A DNA stretch of 54,297 bases, filler included, from Basidiobolus ranarum (lineage: Eukaryota), in assembly GCA_040143965.1 (NCBI GenBank). It is 3 parts of 3 records of this genome, joined end to end, with 100 filler letters (N's around TTAATTAATTAA, not from the genome) between each part and the next. Parts side by side here need not be neighbours in the genome. Positions count along the whole stretch, not along the records: positions 36,348 to 54,297 come from JASJQH010000286.1; 2 more parts are not named here. One strand, 5' to 3'. Below, in pieces: positions 18,120 to 54,297 of this stretch. The notes beneath the pieces are model-generated. The model was not told where the DNA came from. It ran no database searches and saw nothing but the letters and a program-made list of their open reading frames with translations. The position numbers were made by a program, and so were the translations under genes. Numbering within the stretch: position 1 is the first letter of the stretch; every line of letters starts with the position of its first letter.

Positions 18120-18219
18120 NNNNNNNNNNNNNNNNNNNNNNNNNNNNNNNNNNNNNNNNNNNNTTAATTAATTAANNNNNNNNNNNNNNNNNNNNNNNNN
18201 NNNNNNNNNNNNNNNNNNN
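18120..18219. other. Artificial contig linker / assembly gap
   Basis: 100 nt of N with a central TTAATTAATTAA (stop codons in all six frames). Genes on both sides are cut mid-CDS. Confidence 0.97.
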
Positions 18220-34845: not shown

Positions 34846-36247
34846 TTAGAATATCTGACCAACAACCCAAAGATATGTAACTACCCAAAGGGCGAGGGCA
34901 GGTGCGGCAAAAAGATAAGAGTATAATAGCAGTTGAGCCATTTCGTCTTCACAATTGCCCACGGCTTGACAGATGTTCATAAGATTGACGGCTGTAGGGC
35001 CACTGCCAAGAAGCATCATAACCATAACAAACACTGGATCACTACCAAGTGCGAAGAACTTATGAGTGAGCAGCACCACACCGATGGAAACGAGGGGCAT
35101 AAGTACCATTCGTTGTATGACAATAGTCCAAATAACTTTCTTGAAAGCTGCTCTACCAGAGAGTCCATATAATTGAGCTCCTAAACAAAGAAGAATCAAC
35201 GGGATAGAGGCATTACCACAGGTATCGATGGCTCGCATGACAGGGCGAAGAACAGGAGCTGGACCGAACAACAGACCTTTAAGGAAAGGTATCAGTCCAA
35301 CAAATAACCCGATGAAGGTTGCACAGAGGGGAGGGTTGAACACCTTGGCAATAGAAGTAAACCATGACTTGATCTTGATTTTCCAACTTTCAGAACGACT
35401 AGGTCCTGGGATGTGGCCTAATAAGCTACTTCCTTCGGAAATTTGCTCATTAGGGAGTAACTCTTCACCGGAATGGCTGTCTCCAGAAGAGCTACCATAG
35501 TCGGAATATAGGGAAGGAGGTCTACTTGATTTTCCAGTCTTTTCAACGGGCATCGTTATGACGCTACCGTCGGGGCTATGAACAATGCTAGTGTAAACGA
35601 CCTCTTCTTTAGGGGCGTTCAGAAGTTTGAAACCGTAACTGAATCGAAGAAAATTGCCGAGTATAGCAAAAATCACGATATATGATATTCCTCTAGCTTG
35701 TACATCCTCTGGAGTGTCTTTGTCACCCCAAAAGAGCATTTTGACAGCTACACTGCTCGCCAAGCTTTGAATTAACGGAATAGGCAAGCTGTTAGTATTG
35801 GGAAACATACTCGCTGCCATGGAGAAGTTGGACTGCGCCTTGTTAAATTTGAACAGGTATGCGCAGATTTGAGATACGAGTACGGAGACGATAGTGAAAA
35901 TCAAGGCGTACGTTGGGATCGGCCAGAATGTTAAAAAGACGGTCGGAGAGACCGCTGAGGCAACATTAGAGAAGAGAAGACATGGTGTGAGAAAGTTGAG
36001 ATTTAAATTGGAGATGGACTATGATGAAAACATGTGATTAGTAAACATTCGGTGATAGAATAGAATGCATATGTACTAACCTTTTGCAAGCTCTTCGTCA
36101 GAATGCCCTTTTTAGATAAGTAGATGCCTACACCACAAGTGACAGCAATTTGAAGAATCGCCTAATGAACGGACAAATGCTGTTAGTTACGTTGTATTGT
36201 TATTAATATAGGCTAGAAGATGCTTCTATACCTCACCACTGGCTTTG
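34846..36247 (-). CDS. PIN-LIKES / auxin-efflux-carrier family (Mem_trans) transporter, 5'-truncated
   Basis: 'NLNFLTPCLLFSNV', 'FPNTNSLPIPLIQSL', 'RGISY', 'FNPPLCA', 'GNASIPLILLCLGAQL', 'DPVF...GPTAVNL'; two hydrophobic bundles separated by a hydrophilic loop. Confidence 0.9.
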
Positions 36248-36347
36248 NNNNNNNNNNNNNNNNNNNNNNNNNNNNNNNNNNNNNNNNNNNNTTAATTAAT
36301 TAANNNNNNNNNNNNNNNNNNNNNNNNNNNNNNNNNNNNNNNNNNNN
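36248..36347. other. Artificial contig linker / assembly gap
   Basis: Same 100-nt N/TTAATTAATTAA cassette as at 18120. Confidence 0.97.
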
Positions 36348-36765
36348 AGAGGATTCAGCAAACTATATTGATATTGTCACAAATGATCAAGCTGCTGGTA
36401 CTAATGATATGTCCTCCACTCCACGCGTCAGTTTACACTCAATATCTAAGGATCAATGCGACTCGATATGCACCAAGGATACAGCAGTGGAATGTTCCAG
36501 TTGTACGAGTCTTAAATGTGAAGTAGCAGCTTTGAGAAAGACGATTGAGTATTGCAGATACTTAATAGAGAATTCAGTATACTATATTGATATTCTCGCA
36601 AATGACCAAGAGGCTTGTACTATCGATATATCACAGTCTTTAATACCCTTTTTCGCCGTGCCTATCTCACTAGAAAATAACTTACTTGGTTTATGGGCAA
36701 GTTCTGACCCCAATATATATTCTTATTTCTGCCCATATCCTTCATCTATGGACGATAATGAATGA
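36348..36765 (+). CDS. HSF-array family copy A, C-terminal part only (5' end lost in the gap)
   Basis: 'SSTPRVSLHSIS...CDSIC...ECSSC..LKCEVAALRKTIEY...YIDIL.NDQEACTIDISQSLIP' is closely similar to exon 3 of the intact HSF copy at 39909-40847. Confidence 0.75.
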
Positions 36766-37021
36766 TTTCCTTATACTTGCCACCCTTTCGCACCAATTTA
36801 TTGCAGATAAACCAAGTCACTCGTAACGAGGCGGTTCTGTATGAGGATTGTCCTCATCACATTTGTTCATAGTACATGCTCTATAGACACTAACAGAATA
36901 AGCCAATTTGTCCGCGGAACTAGATGTTATTTGTAATTGCGTTTATAGCTATCATGACCAAGTACTTGTCCTGATCCTCTTTTTATGGCCATTTACTATA
37001 ATTATATGATATAAAATATAA

Positions 37022-37340
37022 AGAAACAATTGGTTTTGAGTAACAGGTCCTTAGTAGAGAATTCCATAAATTATATTGATATTCTCACAAATGGCCAATA
37101 AGCGTGTACTATTGATATCCTTCATCTATGGACATTATAGGATGGTTTCCTATAAATGGCAGTAATTGATGGATATTACTTTGAAGTACACTTACCACTC
37201 TTTCGCACCACTTTAGTGCAGATCAGCCGAATCACCAATTGAAAACGGCTTTATCATATTTATTAATAGATCATGGTCTATTTTATTGGTGATAAAAAGT
37301 TGTGCACGGAACTAGATATTATTAGTAAAGAGGTGGAATA
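37022..37340 (+). pseudogene. Degenerate 3' fragment of an HSF-array gene plus 3' flank
   Basis: 'gagaattccataaattatattgatattctcacaaatggccaa-TAA-gcgtgtactattgatat' matches 40626-40690 with a stop and an internal deletion. The downstream 'aaatggcagtaatt' and 'aactagat..agtaaaga' match 40832-41060. Confidence 0.75.
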
Positions 37341-39316
37341 AGTTGCTGCGAATTGTATATATATATATTGATATATGCTATTAATGCAATTCAACTGGTT
37401 TATATGAAGTAGATTGCGTGTATACATATGTAGAGAGTGTGTGGGTGAGAGTTGTGTATATAATAAAGAAATAGCAATACGAATCATCTACATTGGAATA
37501 TTGCCGGATGTTGCTTTGTAGTTGACATGTTAGAGGTCTCACTGAGGCATGACCGAGTGTAAACATTGTGTAGATCTATATCTCTTCGATACTACTTGTA
37601 AAGCATGTCATCATTTGATCTTGGAGAGAGTGCTAAGGCTTAATAATGACAAACCCTGCATCTCAAACTTGAGCAATACACAAGGTATATTTCAATGAAT
37701 CTTACCATATGAATGTGGAAGTTTGTGATATTAGTACCTGCACTTTATTCTTGGAAATGACAAACAGCTACATAATATCATGCAACATGAGTTGCATTGC
37801 TAGACTCTATAGTTAATGGAAGTGATACTGTTTAGAGTCAATATATTTAATCTTCAGCGAGTAAAGTGTTTAAGGTTCCAACATCAAGTGGCATTATGAA
37901 ACAACTTGACCAAAATCTGACTGGTAGTGAATCCAAGATGATTAAATTTATGGTATGTACTCTGTTTAAACAGGATACATAGTAGCATATTCATTGTAGA
38001 TACTTATGTTGCTATGAAAGACAAGCATTTAAATTTTCATATAAATGGTAAAGATGGAAGTGACAAATAGCATCAAGTTAAAAAGATATGACTAAATCAT
38101 TTACTCAATACAAAAGCACATTCCTTATCCACTCTCATCTTAAGAAAGCATATGAGGACTGGAGAAATAAATCAACACTATGCCAATCATATGAATGTTA
38201 CAATCAATCCATCTAGTCATAATAAAAATGGTGCTGACTGAAACTGGAGGAGAAAATACGTATTATCAAAAAACTCAACAATATCAGATAGCTGACTCAA
38301 ATGAACCAATCGGGTTTACTACATGATGCTACTTGAAGCCTACTTTCTAAGACACTGTCCAAGTATGTATATTTCGGGACTTGCTGGATCAGTATCAAGA
38401 CAATGCTTCAAATGGTGACTGTTGTTATCACTAACCAAGATCAATGAACAGATCATGGTTTAAGTCGCAGCCAAAAGAGATTATCATATTCAAACAGTTT
38501 CGCCCAAATCTTAAAAAGAGAAGAAAGTAGATAATTACAATCGTAGACTACTCGCTAAAGTAAGGCTAGTACTGCCGCGCAAAGTGTTGGCAGATAGCTC
38601 CCGTTGATAACCCGCACTGCAAGAGTTGAATAGATATGAAACATGTGTCTATTGAGCGAAATGCGACTGAGCACTTAAATCTCAAAGTAGCAATTCTAGC
38701 ACTTAAATTCCTCAATCTTCTTCCCAGATCTCATACTTCCCCGACAACCGGTTAGTGATAAGAGTATTAGATTTATCACTCAGCTAATAATCACTCCGCC
38801 AATTCGCTATACTTGAATACTGGTATGACAATCTTCTTCATTCCCATTGGAGGATCTTATTTGTGAATGGACCGTTGAATTTACGAAATTCAGGCTTAGT
38901 CAACTCTAAAAACGGCGAAGCCTATAGTAGTTATATATAGCCCGCATGGTCCAAGGTCCAAGTTTAATCACCAGAAGTTCACATTCACATTTCCATGCTA
39001 TATGGGTAACCAATAGAATACAACGCGACAATACAACAGTCTCATAATCAACCCTGACCTTGACCAATGCTGTCAGTGAAACATAATTGCCTAGTTTACG
39101 CTTTACTTTAATATGATCTGCTTGAAAGCTCAGAGTCGGTTATTTAGCATAGTGAGGAATTAACTCGAGTTGGTTCTACAATTGAGTATAAAGATATGGC
39201 CTAATAAGTGCAGTATTACAGATGAAAAATGTTTCGGCGAATGTAAACAAAGTTTTTGTCACTCAAAAGAGAGTAAAGATCTCACTTTTCTTTCCCCGTT
39301 ATTGTAACATATACAC

Positions 39317-39500
39317 TGGACTTGTTCCCAATGATAGTGCCAGATTGTGCTGTATATATCATATTGGATAAAGTATTCTAAAATTTATGCGGCACAATTT
39401 GGCACTATCCAGCACCCTCTGGCATGATCAATTTCATTCATAATTACTATAATATATTGAGCCAAGGGCCGATAAATCCTGGCACAATGGAACAAGTCCA
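39317..39500. repeat. 184-bp element with terminal inverted repeats and nested hairpins (MITE/foldback-like)
   Basis: TGGACTTGTTCC (39317-39328) and GGAACAAGTCCA (39489-39500) form a perfect 12-bp inverted repeat. Internal 20-bp inverted repeat at 39333-39352 / 39390-39409. Confidence 0.6.
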
Positions 39501-39908
39501 CTACAACTGGTGCGAGTGTCATAGTGAGCATCTAATGTAGGTGTCCCATATCCATGTAAAGTAAATATGAAATTGGGAGTAGGGCCGTCCTTAAACTCAA
39601 CCCATATCTAGTATATGATCAAAATTTTTGGGTAAAACCTTTGCTAATGGATTTTCTTACCTAAACGGTAATACCCAAATGGTAATCATACAGAGGGGAA
39701 TCAATATTGTGGCTGTTGCTCCATTTGCGATAGATCACACTCTTCATTGTGTTAATGTTGCATTCAATACAAAAGAGTAATTCAAGAAATGAATCAGTGT
39801 GAAGGAAAACAGCAGAAAGGAGTTCACAAAATATATCCATTCAAGAGGAAAGTATAAAATGGGTGGTCTTCCTCGTTAGTACAAGCATGGTCATTACCAA
39901 TCTCAAAA

Positions 39909-40847
39909 ATGTCAGGTAAACATGGTATTCGCATGCCTTCCTTTGTGTTAAATCTTGTAAAGTAATGCTATCTCTCTCTTCTTCTCTTTTATTATTGAAA
40001 TTAGTCTTTATTAACATGAATAATTCTGTAGAATCCTTTCTGAACCAAACTATTCCCACATAATAGCCTGGGAGTGGTCAGGCATCAGCTTTATCATTAA
40101 GGATTCAATCGAATTTGCCTCCAAAGTACTTCCCCAATACTACGAGACTAGTAAATTAGCTTCATTCACTCGTCAACTCAATGTAAATCTTTGGAGATAA
40201 ATACATACAACAAAATATTAGTAATCAATTCTTTTGAATAGAATTACGGATTTGACAGAGTTACTGACCGGCGAAGAACGAACCAAAGCGGTATTACATC
40301 ATGGATAAGTTATTCACATCAATATTTCAAACGAGATCAACCGAATTCTCTTCATCTTGTTCAACGCCTATCGGGTCCATACTCTAGAGTGAGAAACCAG
40401 GCCTCAACTCTAGCTGAAAATGAAGACATCAGGACGAAATTACTACATTCGCCACTGTCATCAGTATTATCCTCTACTCCACGGGTCAGTTTACACTCAA
40501 TATCTCCAAAAGAATGTGAATCAATATGCACCAGGAATATAGCAGTGGACTGTTTGAGTTGTATAACTCTTAAACGTGAAGTAGCAACTTTGGGCAAGAC
40601 GATTGAGTATTATAAGTCACTAATAGAGAATTCAGCAACGTATATTGACATTCTTACAAATGGCCAAGAAGCTTGTACTATTGATATATCACAATCTTTA
40701 ATCCCTTCTTTTGCCATGCCTATCTCACTAGAAGAGGTCTCGCTAAGTTCATGGACTAACTATGATTGCGATGCATATTCTCATATTTACTCATATCCTT
40801 CACCTATGTGCGCTATTCAATTGTTTCCTAAAAATGGCAGTAATTAA
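39909..40847 (+). CDS. HSF-type DNA-binding-domain transcription factor, copy B (exons 39909-39961, 40032-40182, 40242-40847)
   Basis: Spliced: 'MSGKHGIRMPSFVLNLVK|ILSEPNYSHIIAWEWSGISFIIKDSIEFASKVLPQYYETSKLASFTRQLN|NYGFDRVTDRRRT...YSHQYFKRDQPNSLHLVQR', a complete HSF winged-helix signature. TATAAAA near 39853. Confidence 0.9.
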
Positions 40848-41866
40848 TGAATATTATTACAAAGTTTTTAAAAGTATTTTCCACCCTTGGGAACCAATTA
40901 GTGCCGATTCAGCTAACAGTTGAACCAACTTGATTAGCCGGGTCACCGTAGATGCGGTGGATCTGTTTGTAAAGCGTATTTCTGGTACATCATAGCTTAT
41001 AATTGTAATGAAATAAAAGAATTTATGCATGAAACTAGATGTTGTCAGTAAAGAAGTGGAAGTAGTAATTATGAATTGTACATATAATATTCACGTTGCT
41101 ATCTTTATTATTTACATCAACAACTTCTTCATCTGTATATCGACTTACCGCCTATAACTCAAGATGAAATGGAACTAAAAATTACAACAAATTCGATATA
41201 TGATTGTTTGAAGTGCTCCATACTATTGATCTGGAATGAAGGGGCATTACTGTATTCTATATATTCCATTGCTTTGTACCAAAGAAGGTAACGTTAGATC
41301 AAACTCTTACCCTTCGATACAGGTAAGTCACGATAACAACAAACAAATCAAATAGAACAATGGTGACTATAGAAGTTTCACTGAATAGTATATGTATAGA
41401 CTCTACTGTGCAGTTAGTACACAGGTCAGGTTAGAAAAATCCGGCAATTCTTGGATTCACATACGCTTACGTGATAAAACAATAATATGAAGATGAAATG
41501 ATTCTTTTTTGAATTGTATTTTCAAACACATCAGTAATTTCATCTAATTATGAGCCAATCTCAGTCTAGATAATGGAACAATCTGTGTGACCAGTCATAG
41601 CTGAGCATATATCCATTAGATCTGTATTCCATCTAATGTCATGATCGTCATGAACTATATAGATTCTATGGCTCGGATATGAAACAACAAATTGATACAA
41701 TCAGATTACGCGATATTGTTTCATATTACTGAGTGAAATATGGATAGAAACAACATACAAGACAGACTATCTCAATCATATGCCGAGTCTTTAGTTTAGT
41801 TCGGTTGACTTTCGATTATAAATAGAGAATGGCGCCATCATGTGAGATATGTTAGAGTGCATACAT

Positions 41867-42750
41867 TTGTTGAAAAAATTTGGCAGTAATCATATACCAT
41901 CTTTGTGCTGAATTTTTATGAGTATATATATATATATTACTATTCGCCTACCACAGCCTGCTCAAGCACTACATTTACCCATCCTTTTTCTAACTTGACT
42001 AATTGTGTAGAATCCTTTCTGAACCAAGATAAGATAACTTGGGAACGGTCAGGCATCCTATTTATCAAGAACTCGATAAATTTCGCCTCTGAAGTGCTAC
42101 TCCAATATTAGTAGTAAGTTAACTTCATTCTCTTACCAACTGAATAAATTTGTTGATCAGGTAGCGATATAACAATAGCTCCAGCAGATACATTACTTTC
42201 ACCATATTTTCATAACATTAGTGTCTAAGCAGAGAAGCGATACCCTCTCGATCATCTATTCATATCGACATTTTAAGCGACACAAGCCGGACTCTCTTTA
42301 TCCCTTTCAACGAATGTCTGGTAGGTACGAGAGTCCAATATCTAGTTCAAGAAGTATTTCCATCATTACTTTCACCAAGTCAATCCACATTTTGGTTCAT
42401 CAATCTACAATTAACATTTCTATCCTAAAGTGAATCCAATTGCACGAATGATTCAGTAAGTGATTGTTCGAGCGGTGCACTCCGCAAACAGGAAATAGTG
42501 ACTTTGAGCAAAATGATTGAGTATTACAAATCCTTATTAAATGAACTATTAATAGTGGGTGAGCCAGAGAAAGTTCCGGAAATTATTACTCTTGTTCCCA
42601 CCAATAGCCAAGATATTGACATGTTGCTATCCACAGGCTCCTCCACTGTATCTTTTTATCTTTGAGGTATCAGATTTATGTGAGTATTTCCACCCCAGGA
42701 TTAAACTTTCTCACTGCTCCCACCTTTCTACCACAGCAGTTGCTGTATGA
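41867..42750 (+). pseudogene. HSF-array copy C, pseudogene
   Basis: ATG changed to TTG, a 1-nt deletion in the 'IPSFVL' codons, deletions and stops in exon 2 ('caatattagtagtaag'), and a lost intron-2 donor. Remnants 'WERSGI.FIKNSINFASEVL', 'IIYSYRHFKRHKPDSL' and 'KQEIVTLSKMIEYYK' are still readable. Confidence 0.85.
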
Positions 42751-43507
42751 CAATTACTGTAATGGTTTCTAATTAAAGGTTACTATGAGTAAGATGGTAC
42801 GAATATATAAAGCCATAATCATATGAAATCAAAGTACGCAGCTGATTTGAGAAACACAATTTGGCATCATATATATATATTGACATATTAACAGAACATT
42901 CAAGTTTCTGAGGTTTAATTTCATGCATAGAAATATTTGAACTCAAGCAGCCAAGTATATGACATTTATCAACTATAAGCGAATATCTTGGCTACATTTC
43001 AGTGTCTTTATCCACCTCTTGGTGTAGCCTTCGAGCCAGCTTACTATCCTGAGTTGCATGATATTCATACACATGTAATTAATTATTCTCGCTTGATCCG
43101 CTTTTTTCCTCAACTTTTAATTATCTTGTTGATTCTTCGAGCTTCTATTACCATATTGGACGCAACTTTCGTGCACGGTGATGGACACTGAAGTAGATGA
43201 CTCGGGTATCCATGGATCAGATTTCTGGATCGGATACAAAAATGAAGTATAATGACGTATTTGGCGAACCATGTCAATGCAACTGAATCATTATCATCTA
43301 CATAAAACCATTTGAACGTGAAGAGCTTAATTGGCTCAGGGTAGATTGAAATAAACCAAAAAGATAGAATCAGGTTTACTTATTATATTGCTATAACTAA
43401 CGCACAGATTGTGCTTCAAATATGTAGGGATGGTGATTGGATGTGATTGCAGAGAAATAGATTTTGTATACACACGAGAATTCAAAAAGGAAGAAGCGTT
43501 AGGGTTA

Positions 43508-45154
43508 TTAAAGACGACTAGATAATTTACGGCCTTTCTTAGGTGAGAGAGCGAGAGCATTCTCAACTTCATTTTGAGTACTCGTTACTAAATACCCTAT
43601 ACGATATTTCTTCAGTCTGTTATGTGCATTAGTTGAATGAACCGATACAAAGTCTTCGGTACAATCACCCCCAGCGTTGATAATGATACTATCAGCCCCT
43701 CCAGGGTGAAGCTTAATGAAATCTGTCACGTTATAAACTCCCTCTTTAACGATAATCCAGCAATCGTCAGGCTTATTGTGCTTATTGACTTCTTCCTGAG
43801 TATAGGCTTTACCAACCTTTGGAGTAGTTTTAATTGAAGGTTCTGAACCCTGCTTATCTTTCTTTGGAACCATCCAACCACTTGCGATATTTGCAGTAAG
43901 GCAAGGATGTTCAAATCGATAGTTCATTTCACCATTCGAATTCTCCTCAAGGTTTACCTTTAACCTAAAATAAGCGTTGTTCATTTGACCCAGGATATTC
44001 CAAGTGATATTGACGGGTTGAGTATTTAAAGTAGAATCCCAAGCACGAACAATAATCTCTTTGCATTGAAGTAGCTTCTTCAGTGGAAGATCATATGACC
44101 ATATTGCCCAAGCCCAGTACTTCTTGGTGATAGGGGAGGGAATTTGCTGATCTATATTACATAAAATCCAAGTCTTGCCATCGTCCAGAGATAACTCAAC
44201 ACGAGTAATCCTATTACCACTTCCAGTGTAAGCATAACCACAGCATTTGAAAGATTCCTGAGAAACAGGAACTATCTGGCCTTCTTCTGGATATGCGAAA
44301 GCGGAGTTGATGTTCATTGGATTAATGATGTAGCTAGGGTTTTGCCACCATTTATCTCTAATGGCTTCTTCAGGTTCAACATGGGATGGAATAATACGAT
44401 TATCGTAAATATGATACCAATTATCCGATTCGGTTTTAGAGACAAATATTCTCTTCACCCACTTGACCATACGACCACCAATAATTCCCGGTAAGAGAAG
44501 CCTTACTGGAAAACCGTGATCTGGAGGTAGCAGTTCTCCATTCATTTCATATGACATAAGTACCTCATTACGCGGGTCCATAATGTATTGGTAACTAACA
44601 CTAGTTGCATAAATTCCATTTGGAAGCATTTCGGCACCTTCAAAGTGGACATGCCAGTCCTCCTCATCCTCCTTTGGGATTCGGACTCCACAGGCTAACA
44701 ACAAGTCACGTAGCATGACACCACCAAATACGGCTGTAGAGACGCCAGCAGATCCCCAATTAAAACCTTTAGATTGTTTAAAAAGATTGACTTCTCTGCG
44801 ACGGTTGCCAGCACAAGGAAATGTGACGGGGAATTGTCTCTTGGGGAAAGCAGCTAATTCGTCCATAGAAAAGATTCTAGGATTATCAACCAAGCCTGTG
44901 ATTTCCAGGGTATGGGTATCCCAATCGAGTTTGGGGACAAGACCATGGTTACGTACATAAAAGAGAGAGTTGGGAGTAAGGTAACCCTCATCGTATAGAC
45001 GAGATGGTGAGGGTTCAGCGTTTAGAGGATGCTTTCCAGTAAGCCTAATTAGGCCAGGATTTCTCTTGATCCAATTATCTGGGGTGTGTTCATCGCGTTT
45101 ATCATATATTCTTTCATTGTCAGCAGCAAATTTTGGTAGATTGTTGTAAATCAT
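43508..45154 (-). CDS. niaD: Eukaryotic nitrate reductase-like protein: Moco + dimerisation + cytochrome b5 domains, no FAD/NAD(P)H domain; intronless
   Basis: 'DKRDEHTPDNWIKRNPGLIRLTGKHPLNAEP', 'FYVRNHG', Mo-ligand 'CAGNRR', 'GFNWG', 'PDHGFPVR', 'IGGRMVKW', 'YHIYDNR', 'GYAYTGSG.RITRVE', 'VRAWD', b5 'HPGG...VHS'. The ORF ends 7 aa after 'ALSPKK'. Confidence 0.92.
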   Translation of the reverse strand: MIYNNLPKFAADNERIYDKRDEHTPDNWIKRNPGLIRLTGKHPLNAEPSPSRLYDEGYLTPNSLFYVRNHGLVPKLDWDTHTLEITGLVDNPRIFSMDELAAFPKRQFPVTFPCAGNRRREVNLFKQSKGFNWGSAGVSTAVFGGVMLRDLLLACGVRIPKEDEEDWHVHFEGAEMLPNGIYATSVSYQYIMDPRNEVLMSYEMNGELLPPDHGFPVRLLLPGIIGGRMVKWVKRIFVSKTESDNWYHIYDNRIIPSHVEPEEAIRDKWWQNPSYIINPMNINSAFAYPEEGQIVPVSQESFKCCGYAYTGSGNRITRVELSLDDGKTWILCNIDQQIPSPITKKYWAWAIWSYDLPLKKLLQCKEIIVRAWDSTLNTQPVNITWNILGQMNNAYFRLKVNLEENSNGEMNYRFEHPCLTANIASGWMVPKKDKQGSEPSIKTTPKVGKAYTQEEVNKHNKPDDCWIIVKEGVYNVTDFIKLHPGGADSIIINAGGDCTEDFVSVHSTNAHNRLKKYRIGYLVTSTQNEVENALALSPKKGRKLSSRL

Positions 45155-46125
45155 TATGTATGCGTTGGTGTACTACTCTATAAAGCTGAGGTGTTCATAG
45201 TGGCGCTTAAGTACTCCTACTCGGTGCTGAAACATTTTCTGATTCCTTTGCTCTCCCCCACAGAAATAATATCCACAGTCCATTATGCAACATCTGTCGC
45301 CACGATCCAAGCCTCCTGAAATCCAGCATCAAAGATTTTATTTTAATTGGCTTAAATCTTCCATTGTTTTTACCAATCGGACAATAATGGCAATTTTTCG
45401 ATCACTTTCGACAGTTCTCGCCTATTCTGGGTATATCGCAGTCTAGGCACGTGTATAATCCAAGGTTTAACCTCAGGTTTCCATAGCTTCAAAGGAATAA
45501 TTCTCTCTTTCCAAGGACCGCAAGTCTATAGTAGGCTCTGGTATCCAGTATCGTTTTATACTGATTCAATGAAGCGTTTCATTAGATGATTTGAATATGG
45601 TGGATGTTCTTAATCCCTTTTACACCAAAGAAACGCTAGAACAGTATATATACTCCTTATGAAGAATCCACTTTTGGGGTGATTATTAATCATGACTCAA
45701 TAAGGCTACTTGCTATTGGGTGCTGGTGAGGCAATCTAGCATCGGCTAGGTTTCATATGGATGTGAATACAAGCCGATCTGGGATCAGTAATAACACGAT
45801 CAAGTCTGGAAGTTACAAGCAAACGATCAGGGTGATGATTTGCCCTGAGGCTTGTAGATCCAAATTAAAGAGTTACTGATAAATTACTCATCTTTCCAGC
45901 AGTGTCAGTGATGGCAACTGGATCTACCTCCTCATAGCTGTTTACGGAGGAGATAATATCAGAATCACGAAATGGGTAATAAAAATACTACAAAAACTGG
46001 TGACTGCGATCAAATTCTAATTCCCTTCCCCATAGCACCATTTACAAATATCCCTACTGATTAAGCCTGATTAAATTTAGTCAGTACAAATAAGACTGGC
46101 CGCACCATGGCGGACAACACATAAA

Positions 46126-47074
46126 ATGCTTGAAGGTTATATCGGTAAGCTTAGTATGCGTATACCTTCCTTTGTTCTAAATCTTTACAGGTACAACGCT
46201 CCTTCCTATCCCACTACCACATAACTTCTCTACTAACTTGGTTAATTCTATAGAATACTTTCTGAACCAAAATACTCAGATATGATAGCTTGGGAGCGGT
46301 CAGGCACCAGGTTTATCATCAAAGATACTCTCTCCTTTGCCTCCAAAGTACTTCCCAAATACTACGAGACTAGCAAATTCACTTCATTCTCTCGTCAATT
46401 AAATGTAACTGATGCCTATTAGAGTTATTAAGGAAGTAGCAATATATTAATCTTTGCAATAGATATATGGCTTCCATCGAATTTCGGACCGACGAAGGAC
46501 CAAACAGAGTAGTGAGGCATCTACAATCATTTATTCACACCAACACTTTAAACGAGACCATCCTGACTCCCTTCATCTCATTCAACGTATGGTGGGTCCA
46601 TATTCCCAAGCAAGGACTAGATATTCAATTCAAGAAGCTAACACTAAACCGGCCTTACCTCTCTCGTTGCCTTCACCAATCTCACCAGTGTTACCCTCAT
46701 TTTCAGCCATCAACTTACAGCCAATATCTCAACATGAGTGTGAGTCAAAACGTACGAATGCTCCAGTAGATGCTTGCTCAAATTGTGCGATACTCAAACA
46801 AGAAATGATAGCTTTGAGTAAGTTGATTGAGTATTACAAGTTCTTAGTAAGCGAACCATTCATACTGGGCAGTATGAAGCTAAAAAAGACTACAGTAGGC
46901 CATGACCATGCTCCCACTACTAACCAATATACGGATGTGTTGTCTGCGCCTTGTGCCATCCCTTTATCAAGTTGCACTTTGTCAAATTTCAATACGGATA
47001 TTCATTCTAATAATTATGCTAATCTTTTGGCTTTAGAAGATATTTCACTATTCCCAAATGTTGCCTATCTTTAA
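46126..47074 (+). CDS. HSF-type DNA-binding-domain transcription factor, copy D (exons 46126-46190, 46254-46404, 46463-47074)
   Basis: Spliced: 'MLEGYIGKLSMRIPSFVLNLYR|ILSEPKYSDMIAWERSGTRFIIKDTLSFASKVLPKYYETSKFTSFSRQLN|IYGFHRISDRRRTK...YSHQHFKRDHPDSLHLIQR...CSNCAILKQEMIALSKLIEYYK'. Confidence 0.92.
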
Positions 47075-47821
47075 TAGACTCTTAAATACCATTGGATGAA
47101 GATTCGTATCATTATTCTTATGAAAGCTATTAGTAAATCCAGACTGGATAGGTTTGTTTTCTGATGGGTTGTCCAACTTCAAAGTGATAGTTATAGCAAT
47201 GATATGATGCAATCGTAGTACGCAGCTGGGTTGGACCACAACTTGGTTGGGGGAGGGGGAAGGTAAAATCACATAAACCTCTTCCTTGTTAATCCTAACT
47301 CTTAGACATTCCTGAATACCTCCACACCAGCTCCCTAGACATTCATAAGGGTTAATTAGCATAATGTTATCAGGTTAGTATCAAATCCCAACCAAAGGGA
47401 GTGATTTTGGAACATACTTGGGTTCAAGCTATTCAGTTGAGTAATTAGTGAGATGGAAAATGCCGAACTAAAACAAGATTTACGCAAACAAAAATCTTAC
47501 ATTTAAGATTCCTTTCACAGAAAAGTGATCGCCCTGGGGAATGTAGATCTAAATTTGATCTCGAATCGATTTTCAGAGTAGAGAAATGTCACTTTCCATA
47601 TGGATGATGTGTTGGGTGGGTTTTATCAACTAGTTTTTTGAGATACAAATAATACAAATAGGTGATAAACTATATCCAAAAAGTCCAATTGCAGTATAAG
47701 TGAAACCATCTACATATATTGCTACAATAAAAATAGTTCAGCGCGCATAAATCCCATGTAATATTTCCTGTAATACTACGCCCATGTTCACAAATCATTT
47801 GATTCGGTGCACTTTAACTAT

Positions 47822-47830
47822 TATATATAA
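47822..47830 (+). promoter_or_regulatory. Putative TATA box of HSF copy E
   Basis: TATATATAA about 40 nt upstream of the ATG at 47868. Copy B has TATAAAA at a similar distance. Confidence 0.4.
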
Positions 47831-47867
47831 GGTTAGCTGCTAGCGCGACATAGTAAAGTATATTACA

Positions 47868-48843
47868 ATGTTGAAAGGATCTGCTAGTAAACTTGATATT
47901 CGTATACCTTCCTTTGTGCTGGATCTTTACAAGTAAGCTTTATTTCCTCACGTTGTATCCTCTTCTACACTTCAATATTGTGCACTAGTGGCTTCAAGAG
48001 TGTCTTTACTAAGTTCATACAACTTGTAGAATACTCTTAGAAGAGAAATACTCTGACATGATAGCCTGGGAGTTGTCAGGCAGCAGGTTTATCATTAAAA
48101 ATCCAAGTCTTTTCGCTTCTAAAGTGCTTCCTCAGTACTACAAAACTAATAAATTTGCCTCATTCGCTCGTCAATTAAACGTAAGTTGCAAGCTGTAATA
48201 GTTGTCGCTAATGAAATGATATTAATGCTTCCAACAGATATATGGTTTCCATCGCGTTTCTGACCGACGAAGGACCAAACAAAATCATACTGCTTCAATA
48301 ATTATCTACTCACACCAATATTTCAAGCGAAGTCAGCCAAACTCTCTTCATCTCATCCAACGTACGACGAGTTCCTATATCAAAACTAGAGTCAAATATT
48401 CAACTCCAGAGGTAGACACTACCAGCAAGTCAGCGTCTGCTCCTTCACCCCCTTTATCGCCAGTATTTCCATCATTCTCAGTCATCAACACACAACTAAT
48501 ACCTGGTAATGAGAGCAGAGTACCTAGCATAGCAGAGCCAATAGGCCACTGTTCGAATTGCAAAACACTTGAACAAGAAATGGCGACTTTAAGTAATATG
48601 ATTCAGTATTATATATCAGTATTGAATGGGTCTGAAAATGCGACAGTAATACACACTCCTGTTTCCACTAATTATCAAAATATGTGGCCTATGGAGATAC
48701 AACCATCTCTTATCTTATCGCCATCTTCCACCAACTTCTCCATCGAAGAGCTTTTGCCAAGTTCATGTATTGATTTTGATTTTGTTCCTTGTAACTACAC
48801 ACCTTTTACTAATGACAGATATACTACTGCTTTCAAATATTGA
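47868..48843 (+). CDS. HSF-type DNA-binding-domain transcription factor, copy E (exons 47868-47932, 48030-48180, 48238-48843)
   Basis: Spliced: 'MLKGSASKLDIRIPSFVLDLYK|ILLEEKYSDMIAWELSGSRFIIKNPSLFASKVLPQYYKTNKFASFARQLN|IYGFHRVSDRRRTK...YSHQYFKRSQPNSLHLIQR...CSNCKTLEQEMATLSNMIQYY'. Confidence 0.92.
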
Positions 48844-51800
48844 ATAATTGTAATAATAAACGTGCGAACTTTTGTGAAGTAATCATTACGAAGCATATGT
48901 AAAATCATCGCACCAGAGTATCTAATTAAATTACTTTTTGTGGATTATGTCCTAAATCCTACTCCCTAGTGCACGGATATTGAAAGATTAACGATCGGAT
49001 ATTAATATGAATTTCTCCAACTCTACTAAATGTTACGCGTTTGTGCACACATGTTGAGGCCAACCTTTTCTATTCTTAGTCTATTATAAGAAATGGGGGG
49101 GTGATATCATCTAGATTGGATCCATATATATACAGATCGTATTAAGAATCAGTGATTTCGGATTTCAAGGGATTTTTGAATGATTTCGTAGCATCAGTCT
49201 CAGCAAGGGCAATGGCCATGTTTCAACCGGGTTGCAAACGTATTCTTCAATCTAGTTTCATCGAAGAGTCCATTTAGTACAGAAACCAATTACACAAGTT
49301 GCTACTCTGGACCTTTGACTGTTACATCGAGTTAAGTAAGGGATCAGATCCAGCTACAGCTACATAGGAAATTAGAGCAGATATAGCAATAGCGGATGTA
49401 CACGCTAATTTGCAGTTTTAACTGAGTAATCAAGTGTGCTAAAGGTTGACCAAGAAATTGATGAACTTGTAAGGAAGTTTAAAGCAACAATAGCATACCT
49501 ATTATTGTTATTCTCAATTGCTTTATCACTACCTGCAACATGCTAAAATGGTTCAATATGCTTGAAGCCAATCCAGTAATACATCTCCAGATTTGTTGCT
49601 AGATACTGGTACTATCATTTTATGCTAATGCTTCAAAATATCGGAAAAATATCCTCTTCTCTATCGAATGCTTCCAGGTCAATTTTCATCATTTGTTTTT
49701 CTTGGCTATTAACAATTCCTCATAATATCTCATTTATTCACAATATCTTAAAACCAGATTATATTAATAGCTTGATTTTCGCAACTGGATTCAACTAAAC
49801 ATCAAATGTAGCAATAATCAGCATTCTGCCACTAGCTATTCAGAAAGAGTTCTTATACTAAAGTATGATTATATATGTATGGTTATAGATAGTGCTACAT
49901 AGACCATTTGTAAGTATCACAAGTGTTTCGCATTAACTTGAATCTGTGGTATATTCTAGAATCGTTGAATATAAATCCAGAATCATCTAATTATGTTGCA
50001 GCTGGGCTTTACGTAGATCATATTGTGGAATTATCAAGCGCCAGATGTAGGATCAAACTCCCCAGTCTGAAGTATCTGTAAAGTTAGTTTGCCTTGTTCA
50101 AATAGATTTATGGTTTCTACTAAATATTTTCCCGAGGAATGGCTAAACTTTTTAGCACTGACAAATATCTTTTCACATGAACATCCCCGATGACATCAAC
50201 CAGTTTCCTACTATCTCATTCAATATATGTCCCTCTCCTACTATTGCTTGCTCTGGAAGAGTGGTCTTTTGCGTAAGATATTATCCGGATATCTACGTTT
50301 TGTTATGCATATCCTTATCCTTCATCAGTGGCAAATATATATTCAAATAAATATGCACCGGAGTTGTAGTAATATCAGTGTAAGTCATCGCGACTCTGAA
50401 TCGAGAGTTGCCGATGCTCGCGTTGTCTTGATTGCGTAGATTTTGTTACATTAGGTACATTACCAGTATATACAACTCGTTTATTAAATATCATAAAAGC
50501 AGGTTTGAATGTTTAACCACTACGGTATGGCCAGGTAAATATCAAATGACAAGCAATACTCTATATAATTCTATATACTGGACGACAGTTTGTGTTGCTT
50601 GAATAGACCAGGTACCCTCAGGTAAACTTGAAATTTTTGTACTTCCTTTCGTACCACCATCATCTGAATCTACTTCCAATTCCCATAAAGCCAAAATGTG
50701 CCAAGAGGCAATACATAGCCATTGGTTTTAGTTCTTCAGTCAATAAAATTAAAAAGTATAATAATTTAGTATTACATTAAACTAGGATAAACCATTCATA
50801 GTGATTAGTATATAGTGACTAGTATAATATACAGAGGGTGATTTTTGTTATCCAACTTTTTTCATCAATTAACGTGATTGATAATTATTCCTCGTTGAGC
50901 TTTTACTTACTAGTAACTAATGAGATAACTCTGCTTTTGGAGATGTTGTTTCCGGCCTTGTTTTTCATTAGTCTTTACTTACTAATAACTGATAGGATGT
51001 CTCTACTTGTAACTCAAAGCCGCTTTCGTTATTATTCTACTTGATAATAGGGACTTCATATTAGATGTAGACTAAATGAGACATCATCTAGGAAGCAAGT
51101 TAATCCAAGTAAATATTATCTTTCTTTGTATTAGCAACAGTCTTAATTTTCCTATCAAATATGAGCTAAGCGTTAGTGGTAAAACATCTCATACTTTTGG
51201 TAGCACGTGCCATTATCGCACCCAAGTATAACAGTAGTACTGAAATAAACAAGCAATAAACGCAAACACCAGTACAGTATTTCAGTATTGCAAGTCTAAA
51301 CTGGATAGACATATATCGCACTTAGTATGATATACAAAAGGGTATCTTTAACTAGGTACATTGTTTCGATCAATTGGCAAGATTCCTGGCCTAGTTATTC
51401 TTTTACCTTGGTGATATATTATCCTTATCTAATTTCTAAAATTCCTGTCATTTTAATGACAATAACATTCGAAATTGTTTCTCAGTATTTCATTGCAATG
51501 CTACTATATTATCTTAGATGACATCATTCACTTTAGTCACGATAGTGAACGCCTTGGTTTCAACACGAATGATTCGATGGAAACAGTCCTAAGAGCTAAT
51601 GGGGCACTATGAGCAAATCTGAGTCGAGAGGCAGACTTAAGGTTAACACCATACTCCGGTGAATCATAGAAATTGGGGCCGGAAATTGGAGCATAATGGG
51701 TCTTCTGGTCATAACGTACATCTTGTTTCCCTCAAATTATTGTTATTGTAGTGCAACTAATAGAAAACTGTTGTACTACTATGCATATGTACTATCCTTT

Positions 51801-52235
51801 TCTAGGCTTGAAACTATCAATTGGATTTTTATTGAGTGGATGTCTCTGGTCGTAAATCAAAGCAACTTTTGTCTATACGTGCAATTCACTAATTTAAAAG
51901 TTACTGTCACTATAATTCTACTGGTCCATAATTTTTTTAATTTAGGCCCATTGAAGCAATATCTAAGAAGTACATTTAGTTAAGTAAATAAGATTCTTCT
52001 TGGTGTTAGTATCAACGATTATTTTCATATCAAGATGAGCTGTGAGTAGTAGCCAAATTGGATGATTTTGGTTACATGTGTGCTTTACATCAACTAAGTA
52101 ATAACCACCTCAAGTCATCGTATTTACATGTGAACGGTAATGGTGTAGTAAGTATCATTTTTATATACAAACGATAATAGACTAGAAATATGTATAAATA
52201 TCTCGCAGAAAGTTTAGAGAAGATATGTGTATGAA

Positions 52236-52410
52236 TGCTCCCCTTCCCCTCATCCTTTCAGCACGCATTTTTTGTCAACTTTCGGTCATCAGTACACGAG
52301 CAAAACGGATAGTCCTGAAGAGTCAACATCTTTGATAGATATACACTCTGGATAAGAAATGATGAGTAAAAACATTGAGTATTATTGTTCACGTCTAATG
52401 AATCTCCTAC
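52236..52410 (+). pseudogene. Highly decayed HSF-array exon-3 relic
   Basis: 'tcggtcatcagtacacga' resembles copy E 'tcagtcatcaacacacaa'. 'actctggataagaaatgatgagtaaaaacattgagtattat' resembles 'acacttgaacaagaaatg...agtaatatgattcagtattat'. Frameshifted. Confidence 0.45.
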
Positions 52411-54127
52411 ATCCAATTATTTCCATTGAGGGGAGCTTTCATCACCTTTTTTCTGTGGAATTGCATTCATCAAGTTGAGTTATTAACTTTCATTTTCAGA
52501 ATTCTTCATTCAAATTATTCACGATTTTTGACAATGGCAGGTTTGCTAGTATTTTGAATGTTTAATGACTGGATGAAAAGAAGGACTTTCGCTGAACCAA
52601 TACTCTGATATTAACCTACTCAATTAAATTTATATACTTGTAGCTAATTGATTTTGTAATTGCGCGGCTCCTTTCGTGAGTAGTCTTTCCAATTGGTCAT
52701 GCCTTGTAAATGTGTTGATAAAAACTGTACTGAAGAGGAGCTTGCTCAGTTAATGGGTTTATCTTCAAGAGCCCAATCAGCTTTTCCTTTAAAGTACTTT
52801 CTTCATGCCCCACCAGTAGTCGCGAATACACATATGTTGGTAAGTAAATTTCGTCTTTGCAAGCAATCACATAATAACTCATCTACCAACAGTATTTTAG
52901 GCAATTAATTGATATATATCAGTAGAATCCTCGTTTTCACCTAGCAACACAGAACTAACATCTTTGTTTGACATTTCGTCTAATTCGGATATTATTCTCA
53001 ATCTCTCTTTACCGTTTTAGTTGCTGTTCTACCTCAACGTTAGATATCCCACGGATTTTTATGTAGCTTTGAATAGAATTGAGGTATACACATATCAATT
53101 CTAAGAATATTACTACTAATAATTCTTGCAGTACTTGCCAGTGAATCCATCATGTTAATAGTCTTCTACATCACTAATAAAGGATCATTAATATTGATGG
53201 TTATAATAGGTTACTTCAATTGTAGTGCATGACTAAACTATTCAGTGTGAAATTAGAAACAGCATTAATGATAGTTAGTTACCCTAAGTAGCGCATAATC
53301 AAAGCTAAATATGTCAAGTGGTCCTATTATGAAGCATAGAATCCTATAGAAGAAAAAGCTTCAGGCCAAGTATTGAGAAATTCATGTAAGTAATCATAGT
53401 TGTGGAGGTTTCAATCTGAGTGTAGCATTATTGATACTTATTAACTTTCTTACACTTAGCTTGTTTACTCATACAATCAGTGCAATAAAATTGTACCAAA
53501 CAATCTCATTCAAGTGAAGTAAATAATCCTTTTGGATGCTAAGAAACAAGTTTATCAGTCACAATACAACCAATTTTGTATCAAAAGTGTTTCCGCAGCT
53601 ATACAAGACTGATTAAATTGGTCTCATTCTCTGGTAGTCACAGTTGTAATAATTATAGTATTAGCATAATATATTCTGACCAATGAAAGACTGCACAAAA
53701 TCAATACCTCAATGAATGCCTATTCACACTATTATTGACTAACCAAGCTCTTGCAGTATTGAATAGATACTCTAGAATTAACAGAACATCCTCTTTTATA
53801 GAGAGTATTTCTTTCATCTTGTCTATTGATGGACAGTTTGGTTTCTATAACTTGCAGTAGATTACACCATCAAACATGGCTAAAATCTTCATATCTACTA
53901 CCATGTAAACCAAAAGAGTTCCTATAAGGGCTATATTTCTGTTGAGAATTCTCAGGGAGAATGGAAGTGAAATGGATTATGATAAGAAAGTAAGTTTTCA
54001 CTTGTTGGATTATTAGTTGGAACTTTGGTATTTATACTTCTATCAGAAATACCATAAGCTAATTATGTGTGTGGGGTCATGATGAAAAACATGTCAGAAT
54101 ACTGTGTACAAAGTTTGGGGGCTTTAG

Positions 54128-54297
54128 GACAACTTTGAAATTTCTACTAAACCGTTGCTACTTTCCTCTTCGCTTCCATTCTTGTTCCCCTCAGTGGGAT
54201 TCTCATATCCACTTATCAACACGCAATCAACATCTCAAGACGAATACGAACCGTCTTACACAGAAATACCATCATACCCCTGTTCCAATTGCGAGGT
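54128..54297 (+). pseudogene. HSF-array exon-3-like fragment running off the window end (no DBD exons seen upstream)
   Basis: Open frame 'TKPLLLSSSLPFLFPSVGFSYPLINTQSTSQDEYEPSYTEIPSYPCSNCE' aligns with copy D 'TKPALPLSLPSPISPVLPSFSAINLQPISQHECESKRTNAPVDACSNCA'. Confidence 0.6.

Follow-up and report, generated by a model that had tools for sequence, protein, structure and literature searches.

The window (the whole stretch of DNA that was analysed, 54,297 nt with filler) comes from Basidiobolus ranarum assembly GCA_040143965.1, and its positions 36,348–54,297 correspond to JASJQH010000286.1. On the minus strand of this part (45154–43508) lies a gene, P0001, for a nitrate reductase (NR) paralogue without an FAD module. 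Its reading frame is unbroken for 548 aa, ends in ALALSPKKGRKLSSRL and is followed by a second TAA; the plus-strand frame is rich in stops. The features of the locus are as follows:

43508–45154, minus strand: coding sequence of the FAD-less NR paralogue P0001, 548 aa, intronless (ORF reading, Pfam)
44414–44947, minus strand: molybdopterin-binding domain, residues 70–247 (PF00174, E = 1e-52)
44813–44815, minus strand: Mo-ligand Cys114 (alignment to CAGNRR of 2BIH)
44399–44401, minus strand: Asn252 of the D-N-R motif, NR type (D-Y-K there in the genome's own sulfite oxidase)
43949–44332, minus strand: dimerisation domain, residues 275–402 (Pfam; 118/128 identical to the full-length paralogue L002)
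43820–43885, minus strand: hinge 1, residues 424–445 (low model confidence; 8/22 identical to L002)
43589–43801, minus strand: cytochrome b5 domain, residues 452–522 (His483/His506; net charge −2 vs. −8 in L002)
43520–43588, minus strand: shortened hinge 2 and remnant of the FAD-module start (QNEVENALALSPKKGRKL, from QNEIDSAVALSPKEYRKF), with no secondary structure in the model
43511–43546, minus strand: PTS1 dodecamer SPKKGRKLSSRL (SRL at 43511–43519; four basic residues upstream)
43505–43510, minus strand: tandem stops TAA TAA (sequence)
41490–43507, minus strand: 3′ flank without FAD-module sequence (~74% identical to, and collinear with, the broken sister on contig C1170)
40005–48843, plus strand: tandem HSF-like genes around P0001 (~40005–40847, 41990–42700, 46227–47074 and 48025–48843)

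This NR-HSF neighbourhood was found again on contigs C1170, C1774 and C1352.

Pfam recognised three domains in P0001 (Oxidored_molyb, 70–247; Mo-co_dimer, 275–402; Cyt-b5, 452–522) and no others. The protein retains the Mo ligand Cys114, the dimerisation domain, a C-terminal b5 domain with both heme ligands (His483 and His506), and an NR-type active site (D251-N252-R253 and L388), with Leu388-Gly-Gln390 at the site where sulfite oxidase has Arg-Gly-Val. The ORF, the Pfam domains and the ligand residues bear out the initial annotation, which had described an unbroken 548-aa frame with these domains and left the strand unstated. The AlphaFold model has a mean pLDDT of 86.9 and its top fold match is the Pichia NR fragment 2BIH (E = 6e-49), which is also the top PDB match by sequence; P0001 most likely adopts a Moco-dimer-heme fold. 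All Basidiobolus NRs seen share Gln390 (LGQMNN) at a site that is Met in most NRs, and since Gln replaces the usual Met across this clade, its nitrate activity is an assumption. The FAD/NAD(P)H (cb5R) module of NRs is missing from the chain; P0001 is therefore unable to use NAD(P)H by itself, and must receive electrons from another protein.

With the FAD module of the nearest full-length paralogue as query, tblastn returned only noise across the whole window (best E = 2.5), and pairing each GT of the final 200 nt of coding sequence with each downstream AG on the contig lengthened the frame by no more than 89 codons, all non-FAD. These results agree with the earlier report that no FAD-domain sequence lies downstream and, at the level of sequence, rule out cryptic splicing onto an FAD exon on this contig, a possibility raised at the same time. 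The contig continues for ~7.1 kb beyond the P0001 stop to the next N gap at 36304–36347. Contig C1170, which was assembled separately, runs collinear with positions 40121–46096 of the window and carries the identical junction; a misassembly at 43.5 kb, also raised earlier, is thus very unlikely, and we discarded it on this ground. As first described, the window holds neither a nitrite reductase nor NRT2. A genome-wide check, which the initial annotation had proposed, found four full-length NRs and, on another contig, a nitrite reductase. NRT2 was not found in the genome either with TIGR00886 (best 56.5 bits; cut-off 311.7) or with an algal NRT2, a result that does not prove its absence.

P0001 is 82% identical to L002 and is its sister in the tree (support 98/95), inside a Basidiobolus clade (100/100), indicating that it descends from within the NR family. 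It is 61–72% identical to the B. meristosporus NRs (P0002–P0005). A shared end point in related species, which had been suggested as a check, was not seen in these proteins: all those returned were full-length, so the short form appears to be lineage-restricted within Basidiobolus. A sister copy on C1170 has the same truncation and is broken by 10 frameshifts and 5 stops; among NR copies in the repeated NR-HSF blocks, those on C1170 and C1352 are both broken. Because a three-taxon dN/dS model was degenerate (free-ratio omega >1000 on L002), we used a four-taxon codon model (P0001, the C1170 sister, L002 and L003; 521 codons), in which omega was 0.082 on the P0001 branch (dS 0.146), 0.656 on the sister and 0.12 in the background, and omega = 1 was rejected (p = 5e-6). 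Private codon changes (synonymous/non-synonymous) numbered 21/5 in P0001 vs. 23/60 in the sister (Fisher p = 2e-6). P0001 has been under purifying selection since its split from the broken sister and is not decaying. The earlier proposal of a recently truncated duplicate is therefore half right: P0001 did arise from a full-length NR by duplication and truncation, but neither decay nor neutral evolution fits the low omega.

The C-terminus of P0001, KKGRKLSSRL followed by the stop, is a peroxisomal targeting (PTS1) sequence that the initial annotation had overlooked. The PTS1 consensus is a C-terminal [SAC][KRH][LM] with basic residues upstream; SPKKGRKLSSRL has both the tripeptide and the basic context, and the tail is unstructured in the AlphaFold model and would therefore be exposed. 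Among 11,386 stop-terminated frames in the analysed DNA, 34 end in a canonical PTS1 (~0.3%) and two (~0.02%) also have at least three upstream basic residues. None of 273 full-length NRs ends in a PTS1, compared with 13 of the 47 FAD-less proteins whose b5 domain is complete (9 canonical) and 1 of 60 proteins cut inside b5. Most FAD-less Dikarya-type matches end within b5, at what looks like an intron; taken to be artefacts of gene calling, they provided this last set as a control. The genome has Pex14-like genes (Pex14_N matches), encodes MoaC, and has other enzymes ending in QSKL, RPKL, NVRL and NTKL; no canonical PTS1 was seen at 3 of 5 acyl-CoA oxidase loci or at the 4 uricase loci read, the latter, chosen as a PTS1 positive control, ending in IARR. 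Plant sulfite oxidase is a precedent for a peroxisomal Moco enzyme (PMC6321594). From the tail sequence, we infer that P0001 is imported into peroxisomes.

Arbuscular mycorrhizal fungi, Rhizophagus irregularis and Gigaspora among them, have the same FAD-less architecture. Among 12 Glomeromycota proteins listed, all 10 complete ones end in SKL, AKL, AKM, PKL or AKI (e.g., R. irregularis CAB4490758.1, 534 aa; G. margarita KAF0431048.1; F. caledonium CAG8680850.1) and the two labelled partial lack such ends; PKL and AKI are non-canonical tripeptides. Like P0001, these proteins have three domains, a similar length, a PTS1-like end and a b5 domain of low acidity; they stop ~10 residues past b5, whereas P0001 keeps ~25, including the remnant of the FAD-module start. 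Three metagenome contigs (GC 0.32–0.34) also have an SKL-stop end and no FAD sequence, and an ESM Atlas cluster of 119 members, commonest in Mucoromycota, shares the FAD-less architecture. A single clade of all PTS1 short forms was rejected (p-AU 3e-38), placing the Glomeromycota forms and P0001 in separate origins; the Glomeromycota forms as one clade gave an AU p of 0.30 and, being kin, count as one or two events. The FAD-less PTS1 design appears to have at least three independent origins, judging from a careful tree of 29 of 61 rows (LG+G4, no mixture model); the 32 rows excluded from it had long branches, were redundant or artefactual, or lacked a PTS1. FAD-less NRs without PTS1 are known too (Bryopsis P0206 and relatives, and P0202). 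Both short and full-length NRs occur in Basidiobolus, Rhizophagus, Funneliformis, Glomus, Acaulospora and Entrophospora; in the lists of the best 120 matches and among the cluster members listed, no full-length NR was assigned to Gigaspora, Scutellospora, Dentiscutata, Cetraspora, Racocetra or Diversispora, which falls short of proving its absence there.

The b5 domain of the short forms is less acidic, with a mean net charge of −0.5 in 12 PTS1 short forms vs. −5.75 in 208 full-length NRs; the mean of 27 full-length NRs of early-diverging fungi is −7.4. The shift is present in each independent origin; one short form, P0130, keeps an acidic b5 (−6). Compared with L002, P0001 has lost acidic b5 residues through E482L, E515K, D475N and E521Y; residues of this kind are used for docking cb5R. 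Since P0130 is acidic and the Moco and dimerisation domains of P0001 are also less acidic (−4 vs. −9 in L002), the shift may reflect relaxed constraint.

Regarding the electron donor, the genome has several cb5R genes, and its 13 PF00970 matches comprise 4 in full-length NRs and 9 in other reductases, with no stand-alone NR-type FAD module among them. The earlier idea of a split NR fed by a separate b5 reductase thus holds in that an outside donor is needed, and finds no dedicated partner among these matches. No cb5R-like protein with a readable C-terminus carries a canonical PTS1. Of the candidate donors seen, the strongest is the only flavocytochrome b2-like protein of the genome (b5 plus FMN hydroxy-acid dehydrogenase, no presequence, ending in QSKL), linked to P0001 by predicted co-targeting only; by redox potentials, heme-to-heme transfer from flavocytochrome b2 may be uphill. 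A peroxisomal PTS1 cytochrome b2 acting with lactate had no match in the open-access literature searched.

Among known systems, the eukaryotic NAD(P)H:NR of Pichia angusta (2BIH/2BII) shares with P0001 the Moco-dimer-b5 order, the Cys, the D-N-R motif and the heme His pair; P0001 differs from canonical NR in having no FAD/NAD(P)H module, a PTS1 end and a less acidic b5. CS-pNR of Creolimax and Sphaeroforma likewise has the first three NR domains without the canonical FAD module and is a proposed working nitrate reductase, an example of how the NR module can be driven by a different electron source (Ocana-Pallares et al., 2019; PMC6400420). It is a nitrate-cluster gene with a fused nitrite reductase piece as donor, whereas P0001, with three Pfam domains only, has nothing fused and an added PTS1; the strings "peroxis" and "truncat" do not occur in the main text of PMC6400420. 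A foraminiferal Moco protein without FAD/NAD(P)H domains is a proposed NR whose electron source is likewise in doubt; it is annotated as a sulfite oxidase (sulfite oxidase/putative NR), with no PTS1 mentioned in the passages that concern it (PMC8153729), whereas P0001 derives directly from a full-length NR. Plant peroxisomal sulfite oxidase (1OGP) and its animal counterpart (1SOX) share the Moco/dimer fold of P0001. The plant enzyme has no heme and no b5 domain; the animal one comprises the three domain types of P0001 in a different order, with b5 at the N-terminus. The sulfite-binding Arg and Tyr are missing in P0001 (chicken sulfite oxidase reads WNLRGV). A sulfite oxidase identity was ruled out by the active-site residues (WNILGQ, DNR) and the C-terminal b5. 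NR is mentioned in PMC9244630 solely as a promoter and within a reference. No description of a peroxisomal or truncated NR of the P0001/Glomeromycota type was found in the open-access literature searched, so an earlier mention may exist in subscription journals or supplements, e.g., of AM-fungal genome papers.

In the explanation that we favour, a duplicate of a full-length Basidiobolus NR would have lost its FAD/NAD(P)H module just past hinge 2, gained a C-terminal PTS1 and then been kept by purifying selection. Once expressed, P0001 would be imported into the peroxisome and reduce nitrate to nitrite at its Mo centre; its heme would be reduced in trans by a separate peroxisomal redox enzyme, so that peroxisomal metabolism would use nitrate as a substrate or as an electron sink, and the full-length cytosolic NRs would carry out assimilation. 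Taken as a whole, the balance of probability tips slightly towards this peroxisomal nitrate-reducing module with a separately fed heme.

The targeting evidence would serve equally well for a peroxisomal enzyme, its heme fed by a separate donor, whose main product is NO, made by one-electron nitrite reduction for signalling, a role that the initial annotation had raised, or for nitrosative chemistry. Assimilation is already served by the four full-length NRs and the nitrite reductase, and Moco enzymes (mARC, NR) do reduce nitrite to NO, but the same source has millimolar nitrate strongly inhibiting NO production by NR and algal NO synthesis needing a diaphorase module, which P0001 lacks (PMC6321594). 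The active-site residues also equal those of the full-length paralogue, and the presence of only short forms among the Gigasporaceae and Diversispora matches listed suggests a core nitrate-reducing role there; we regard an NO-producing enzyme as unlikely. Piggyback import of oligomers into peroxisomes is established, and the PTS1 short form could instead be a carrier subunit that heterodimerises with full-length NR, giving peroxisomes an NADH:nitrate reductase with which to reoxidise the NADH from beta-oxidation. Its dimerisation domain is the part best conserved with L002 (118/128), and six genera have both forms; however, a pure carrier needs no catalytic site or heme ligands kept at an omega of 0.08, and no full-length NR was seen among the matches listed for the six other genera named above, making a carrier rather improbable.

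A peroxisomal Moco enzyme neofunctionalised for another substrate (a sulfite-oxidase-like oxidase or an N-oxide/oxyanion reductase) would suit the domain content, which is that of animal sulfite oxidase in another order, the sulfite oxidase cluster that is the second ESM Atlas match, and the peroxisomal plant sulfite oxidase (PMC6321594). Yet P0001 reads WNILGQ without the sulfite-oxidase Arg (wild-type WNLRGV), Asn replaces Tyr, the Moco domain is 225/260 identical to L002, and the genome already has a sulfite oxidase (DYK, WNFRGV, end NTKL), so that we give another substrate little chance. PDB sulfite oxidase mutants of altered activity read WNLMGV and WNLMGM, and Y343N/R472M variants had no match in the open-access literature searched. 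Equally hard to sustain, and if anything slightly less probable, is a cytosolic split NR fed by an ordinary cb5R or by the diaphorase of full-length NR, with SRL incidental or a weak dual-targeting signal: green algae and others have FAD-less NRs that lack a PTS1 (b5 charge −11 to −12) and several cb5R genes are present, but the chance rates of a PTS1 given above are low, the signal has arisen in three or more lineages independently, and the P0001 b5 has lost the four acidic residues. Least probable of all, to the point of being barely credible, is that P0001 is a decaying duplicate or an assembly artefact; the assembly is fragmented (13,754 contigs) and P0001 lies within a repeated NR-HSF block of which two other copies are broken, but omega is 0.08 after the truncation, the frame stayed intact while the sister gathered 15 lesions, and the junction is identical on an independent contig.

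The usual view of eukaryotic NR is of a cytosolic, self-sufficient NAD(P)H enzyme; claims in the 1970s of NR in plant microbodies were later not upheld. Should P0001 be a peroxisomal nitrate-reducing module, repeated loss of the electron-input module together with a peroxisomal address would imply that fungal peroxisomes harbour an electron chain and a nitrogen-oxide chemistry not yet described. P0001 is a recent, independent replicate of the short form and, with full-length L002 (82%) and a broken sibling in one genome, makes a clean set in which to find the function-creating changes. Since the Glomeromycota short forms carry the database label "nitrate reductase [NADPH]" though unable to bind NADPH, expression data on these genes may be misread. 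We tentatively suggest, as a possibility short of an expectation, that early-diverging fungi repeatedly evolved a peroxisomal, diaphorase-free NR that couples peroxisomal oxidation to nitrate/nitrite reduction, and that this may be the sole NR in Gigasporaceae and Diversispora; hydroxy-acid oxidation via the SKL-tagged flavocytochrome b2 and reoxidation of beta-oxidation equivalents are examples of such oxidation. If so, the first step of nitrate use in Gigasporaceae and Diversispora would be sited in peroxisomes; the short form occurs widely among arbuscular mycorrhizal fungi, and the way these fungi handle nitrate is important for plant nutrition.

The 548-aa open reading frame at 43508..45154, which the initial annotation had placed correctly and which lies on the minus strand, encodes a nitrate reductase (NR) paralogue, P0001. 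A Pfam scan bore out the Moco (Oxidored_molyb, residues 70-247), dimerisation (Mo-co_dimer, residues 275-402) and b5 (Cyt-b5, residues 452-522) domains claimed for it, and found no FAD or NAD domain in the protein. The claims that no FAD-domain sequence lies downstream and that cryptic splicing adds little were likewise upheld: tblastn of the whole window gave a best E of 2.5, and any GT-AG join extends the frame by at most 89 codons. Confidence in the AlphaFold model (mean pLDDT 86.9; 54-row alignment) is low in hinge 1 and the final 25 residues and nowhere else; the structure it most resembles in fold is 2BIH, a nitrate-reducing fragment from Pichia. P0001 is a nitrate reductase by descent; it is without the family's defining FAD module, and so noncanonical.

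Looking, as the initial annotation had proposed, for related genes elsewhere in the host genome, we found an NAD(P)H-type nitrite reductase and four full-length NRs, each with its own FAD module: L002 on contig C1774 (82% identity to P0001), L003 on C550 (68%), and those on C6923 and C163 (41-44%). The genome also encodes MoaC and sulfite oxidase. Although the host genome has these NRs and a nitrite reductase, two queries found no NRT2 nitrate transporter in it, and no nitrate gene cluster was seen around C7498, C550 or C1774. The closest database matches to P0001 are four Basidiobolus meristosporus NRs (61-72% identity); the same end point, to be sought in related species, did not appear there, as the B. 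meristosporus NRs among the matches listed are all full-length. Basidiobolus has many NR paralogues (L002-L005, P0002-P0005), and in every member of its intronless NR group a Gln stands at the position of the Met of other NRs (LGQMNN). The dimer domain is very divergent in L004 and L005, in which nitrate reduction may be absent.

The window joins three contigs across N gaps at 18120-18219 and 36248-36347, with the following features besides P0001:

4426-7744, minus: formin-like gene (by eye)
15628-16395, minus: O-methyltransferase (Pfam)
18425-23541, plus: UBR1-like E3 ligase (by eye)
28279-29136, plus: DUF7137 protein
34846-36018, minus: membrane transport protein PF03547 (auxin-efflux-carrier-like), 390-aa open frame (Pfam)
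36348-48843: at least four tandem HSF-like genes with very divergent C-termini; fragments at 36.4-37.2 kb

The O-methyltransferase, UBR1-like, formin-like and DUF7137 genes are ordinary and lie on other contigs than P0001. The P0001 gene sits within the array of HSF-like genes, and three other contigs also have an NR next to an HSF-like gene, indicating that the block was duplicated several times. HSF genes would seem to have expanded greatly, as C1170, C1352 and C1774 carry similar arrays. On C1352, a heavily decayed NR pseudogene (L051) that still has FAD-module remnants adjoins an HSF-like gene.

A broken NR copy that shares both the truncation and the 3' flank lies on contig C1170, which is collinear with window 40121-46096, so the truncation is older than that duplication and a misassembly at the window gene, one of the conditions raised initially, is not borne out. 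The proposal of a truncated duplicate stood, but the gene is under purifying selection rather than decaying. Since the split, the sister copy has acquired 10 frameshifts and five in-register stops, and the window copy none. A codon model of four taxa and 521 codons (426 with sister data) estimated omega at 0.082 for the window branch, where dS was 0.146, at 0.656 for the sister and at 0.12 for the remaining branches. A value of omega=1 was rejected for the window branch (p=5e-6); for the sister it was not rejected (p=0.12). No difference between the window branch and the background was seen (p=0.39). Private synonymous/non-synonymous codon changes numbered 21/5 in the window copy and 23/60 in the sister; at the amino-acid level the window copy has eight private replacements.

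Alignment to L002, where the FAD module starts as QNEIDSAVALSPKEYRKFPLIE and the corresponding window sequence is QNEVENALALSPKKGRKLSSRL followed by the stop, indicates that the P0001 tail is the remodelled start of the lost FAD module. Four basic residues stand ahead of its C-terminal SRL, which fits the canonical consensus of a peroxisomal targeting signal (PTS1). We examined 11,386 distinct stop-terminated frames, a set that takes in P0001 itself and real genes: a canonical PTS1 closes 34 of them, and two also have the basic context. At this position the sister copy reads, from the alignment, KGDKVPNCPQ and a stop; the PTS1 may have been either lost in the sister or gained by the window copy after the split.

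Across 446 retrieved proteins, a PTS1 end was present in 0/273 full-length NRs, 1/60 proteins cut inside b5, 0/66 others, and 13 (9 canonical, P0001 counted) of 47 FAD-less proteins with complete b5, a class that takes in fragments and mis-predicted plant models. All 10 complete proteins among 12 FAD-less ones from Glomeromycota end in SKL, AKL, AKM, PKL or AKI, and the other two, labelled partial, end at FYI; the Rhizophagus irregularis short form (534 aa) ends KRPKL. Further cluster members end in SKL, PKL or AKL in 17/19 Glomeromycota rows and 7/11 rows of another set, the exceptions being partial models, b5-cut models, a fragment or differently ended models. An ESM Atlas cluster of 119 members has the Moco-dimer-b5 architecture, commonest in Mucoromycota, and P0199 (SSSKL) and the distant P0423 (PNAKL) share the FAD-less PTS1-ended design. 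Three of 34 metagenome loci are low-GC contigs in which b5, SKL and a stop are followed by AT-rich sequence with no FAD match. Among the matches listed, Rhizophagus, Funneliformis, Glomus, Acaulospora and Entrophospora have both NR forms, Ambispora and Paraglomus full-length forms only, and Gigasporaceae and Diversispora short forms only, absence from a ranked list not being proof. FAD-less NRs without PTS1 also occur, in Bryopsis (P0206) and relatives and as P0202. Six such proteins (P0206, P0201, P0204, P0202, P0213 and P0322) end directly after the b5 domain and may represent a separate way of splitting NR; they come from Bryopsis, two relatives and eukaryotes that are unplaced. A green-algal metagenome contig (L065:1160-8846), read by eye, carries a nitrate cluster of a formate/nitrite transporter-like ORF, an RWP-RK-like regulator, a full-length NR and NRT2.

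Both trees pair the window gene with L002 as sisters within a fully supported Basidiobolus clade. A single clade of all 11 short rows was rejected (p-AU 3e-38); a single clade of the nine Glomeromycota short rows was not rejected (p 0.30), although the free tree splits them in two. The starred branches force at least three changes, in Basidiobolus, Glomeromycota and the P0199 lineage, the last unsure in position owing to its long branch.

Mean b5 net charge was -0.5 (range -6 to +4) in 12 PTS1 short forms, whose relatedness makes them about three contrasts rather than twelve. Full-length NRs were more acidic, averaging -5.75 over 208 proteins and -7.4 over 27 from early-diverging fungi; P0001 stands at -2 and L002 at -8. 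Asp/Glu precedes HPGG in 177/208 full-length versus 2/12 short forms, and Arg/Lys stands seven residues after the second His in 7/12 short versus 8/208 full-length forms; I513R is private to the window branch. Algal FAD-less forms without PTS1 have strongly acidic b5 domains (-11 to -12). The shift is consistent with the FAD module no longer being docked and possibly with a new partner, but relaxed constraint would account for it as well.

The P0001 active site is NR-like, with D251-N252-R253 as in Pichia NR and WNILGQ, compared with WNLRGV in wild-type sulfite oxidase and WNLMGV or WNLMGM in PDB altered-activity mutants; these positions switch specificity. The sulfite oxidase job is already filled, since the host sulfite oxidase (L016/L017, C140), an intron-containing gene with no b5 match in the ORFs read, keeps DYK, WNFRGV and an NTKL end. 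Its terminal QQSNTKL is a possible non-canonical PTS1, as in a plant-like peroxisomal sulfite oxidase.

Since P0001 has no FAD module, its heme must be reduced in trans. Readable C-termini of cytochrome b5 reductase-like proteins were VFKF, IFKF, VYKF, VHKF, VYRL, ITVL and ITVL; of two others, one is cut by a contig end and one is a domain in a larger gene. The sole flavocytochrome b2-like gene found in the host (L054:1405-2956, minus, C6950; b5 and FMN_dh, one intron) encodes a protein with no mitochondrial presequence that ends MQPKQSKL, a candidate peroxisomal electron donor. Flavocytochrome b2-type enzymes normally hand electrons heme-to-heme to basic cytochrome c. Peroxisomes are not known to contain cytochrome c, so that a b5 domain of lower acidity located alongside the donor would be a plausible acceptor; electrons would then pass from the flavocytochrome b2 heme to the P0001 b5 heme within the peroxisome. 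Uricase is strongly expanded in the host (45 PF01014 matches, two domains per gene, well over ten genes), with several genes paired head-to-head or tail-to-tail; none at the four loci read has a canonical PTS1, all ending TATIARR. The reptile or amphibian gut is rich in uric acid, and the expansion may be linked to life there.

An ichthyosporean NR (CS-pNR) has a nitrite-reductase piece in place of the FAD module (PMC6400420), whereas in P0001 nothing is fused in its place; the main text of that paper contains no 'peroxis', 'truncat', 'Basidiobolus' or 'Rhizophagus'. Among Moco enzymes, the sulfite oxidase of plants is described as peroxisomal, and NR as having a role in NO (PMC6321594); a FAD-less foraminiferal candidate has also been discussed (PMC8153729). 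Searches of the open-access literature turned up no account of a fungal NR that is peroxisomal or FAD-less. P0001 is, with good probability, a functional, peroxisome-directed, FAD-less enzyme; as its specific mechanism, we lean slightly towards nitrate reduction fed in trans.
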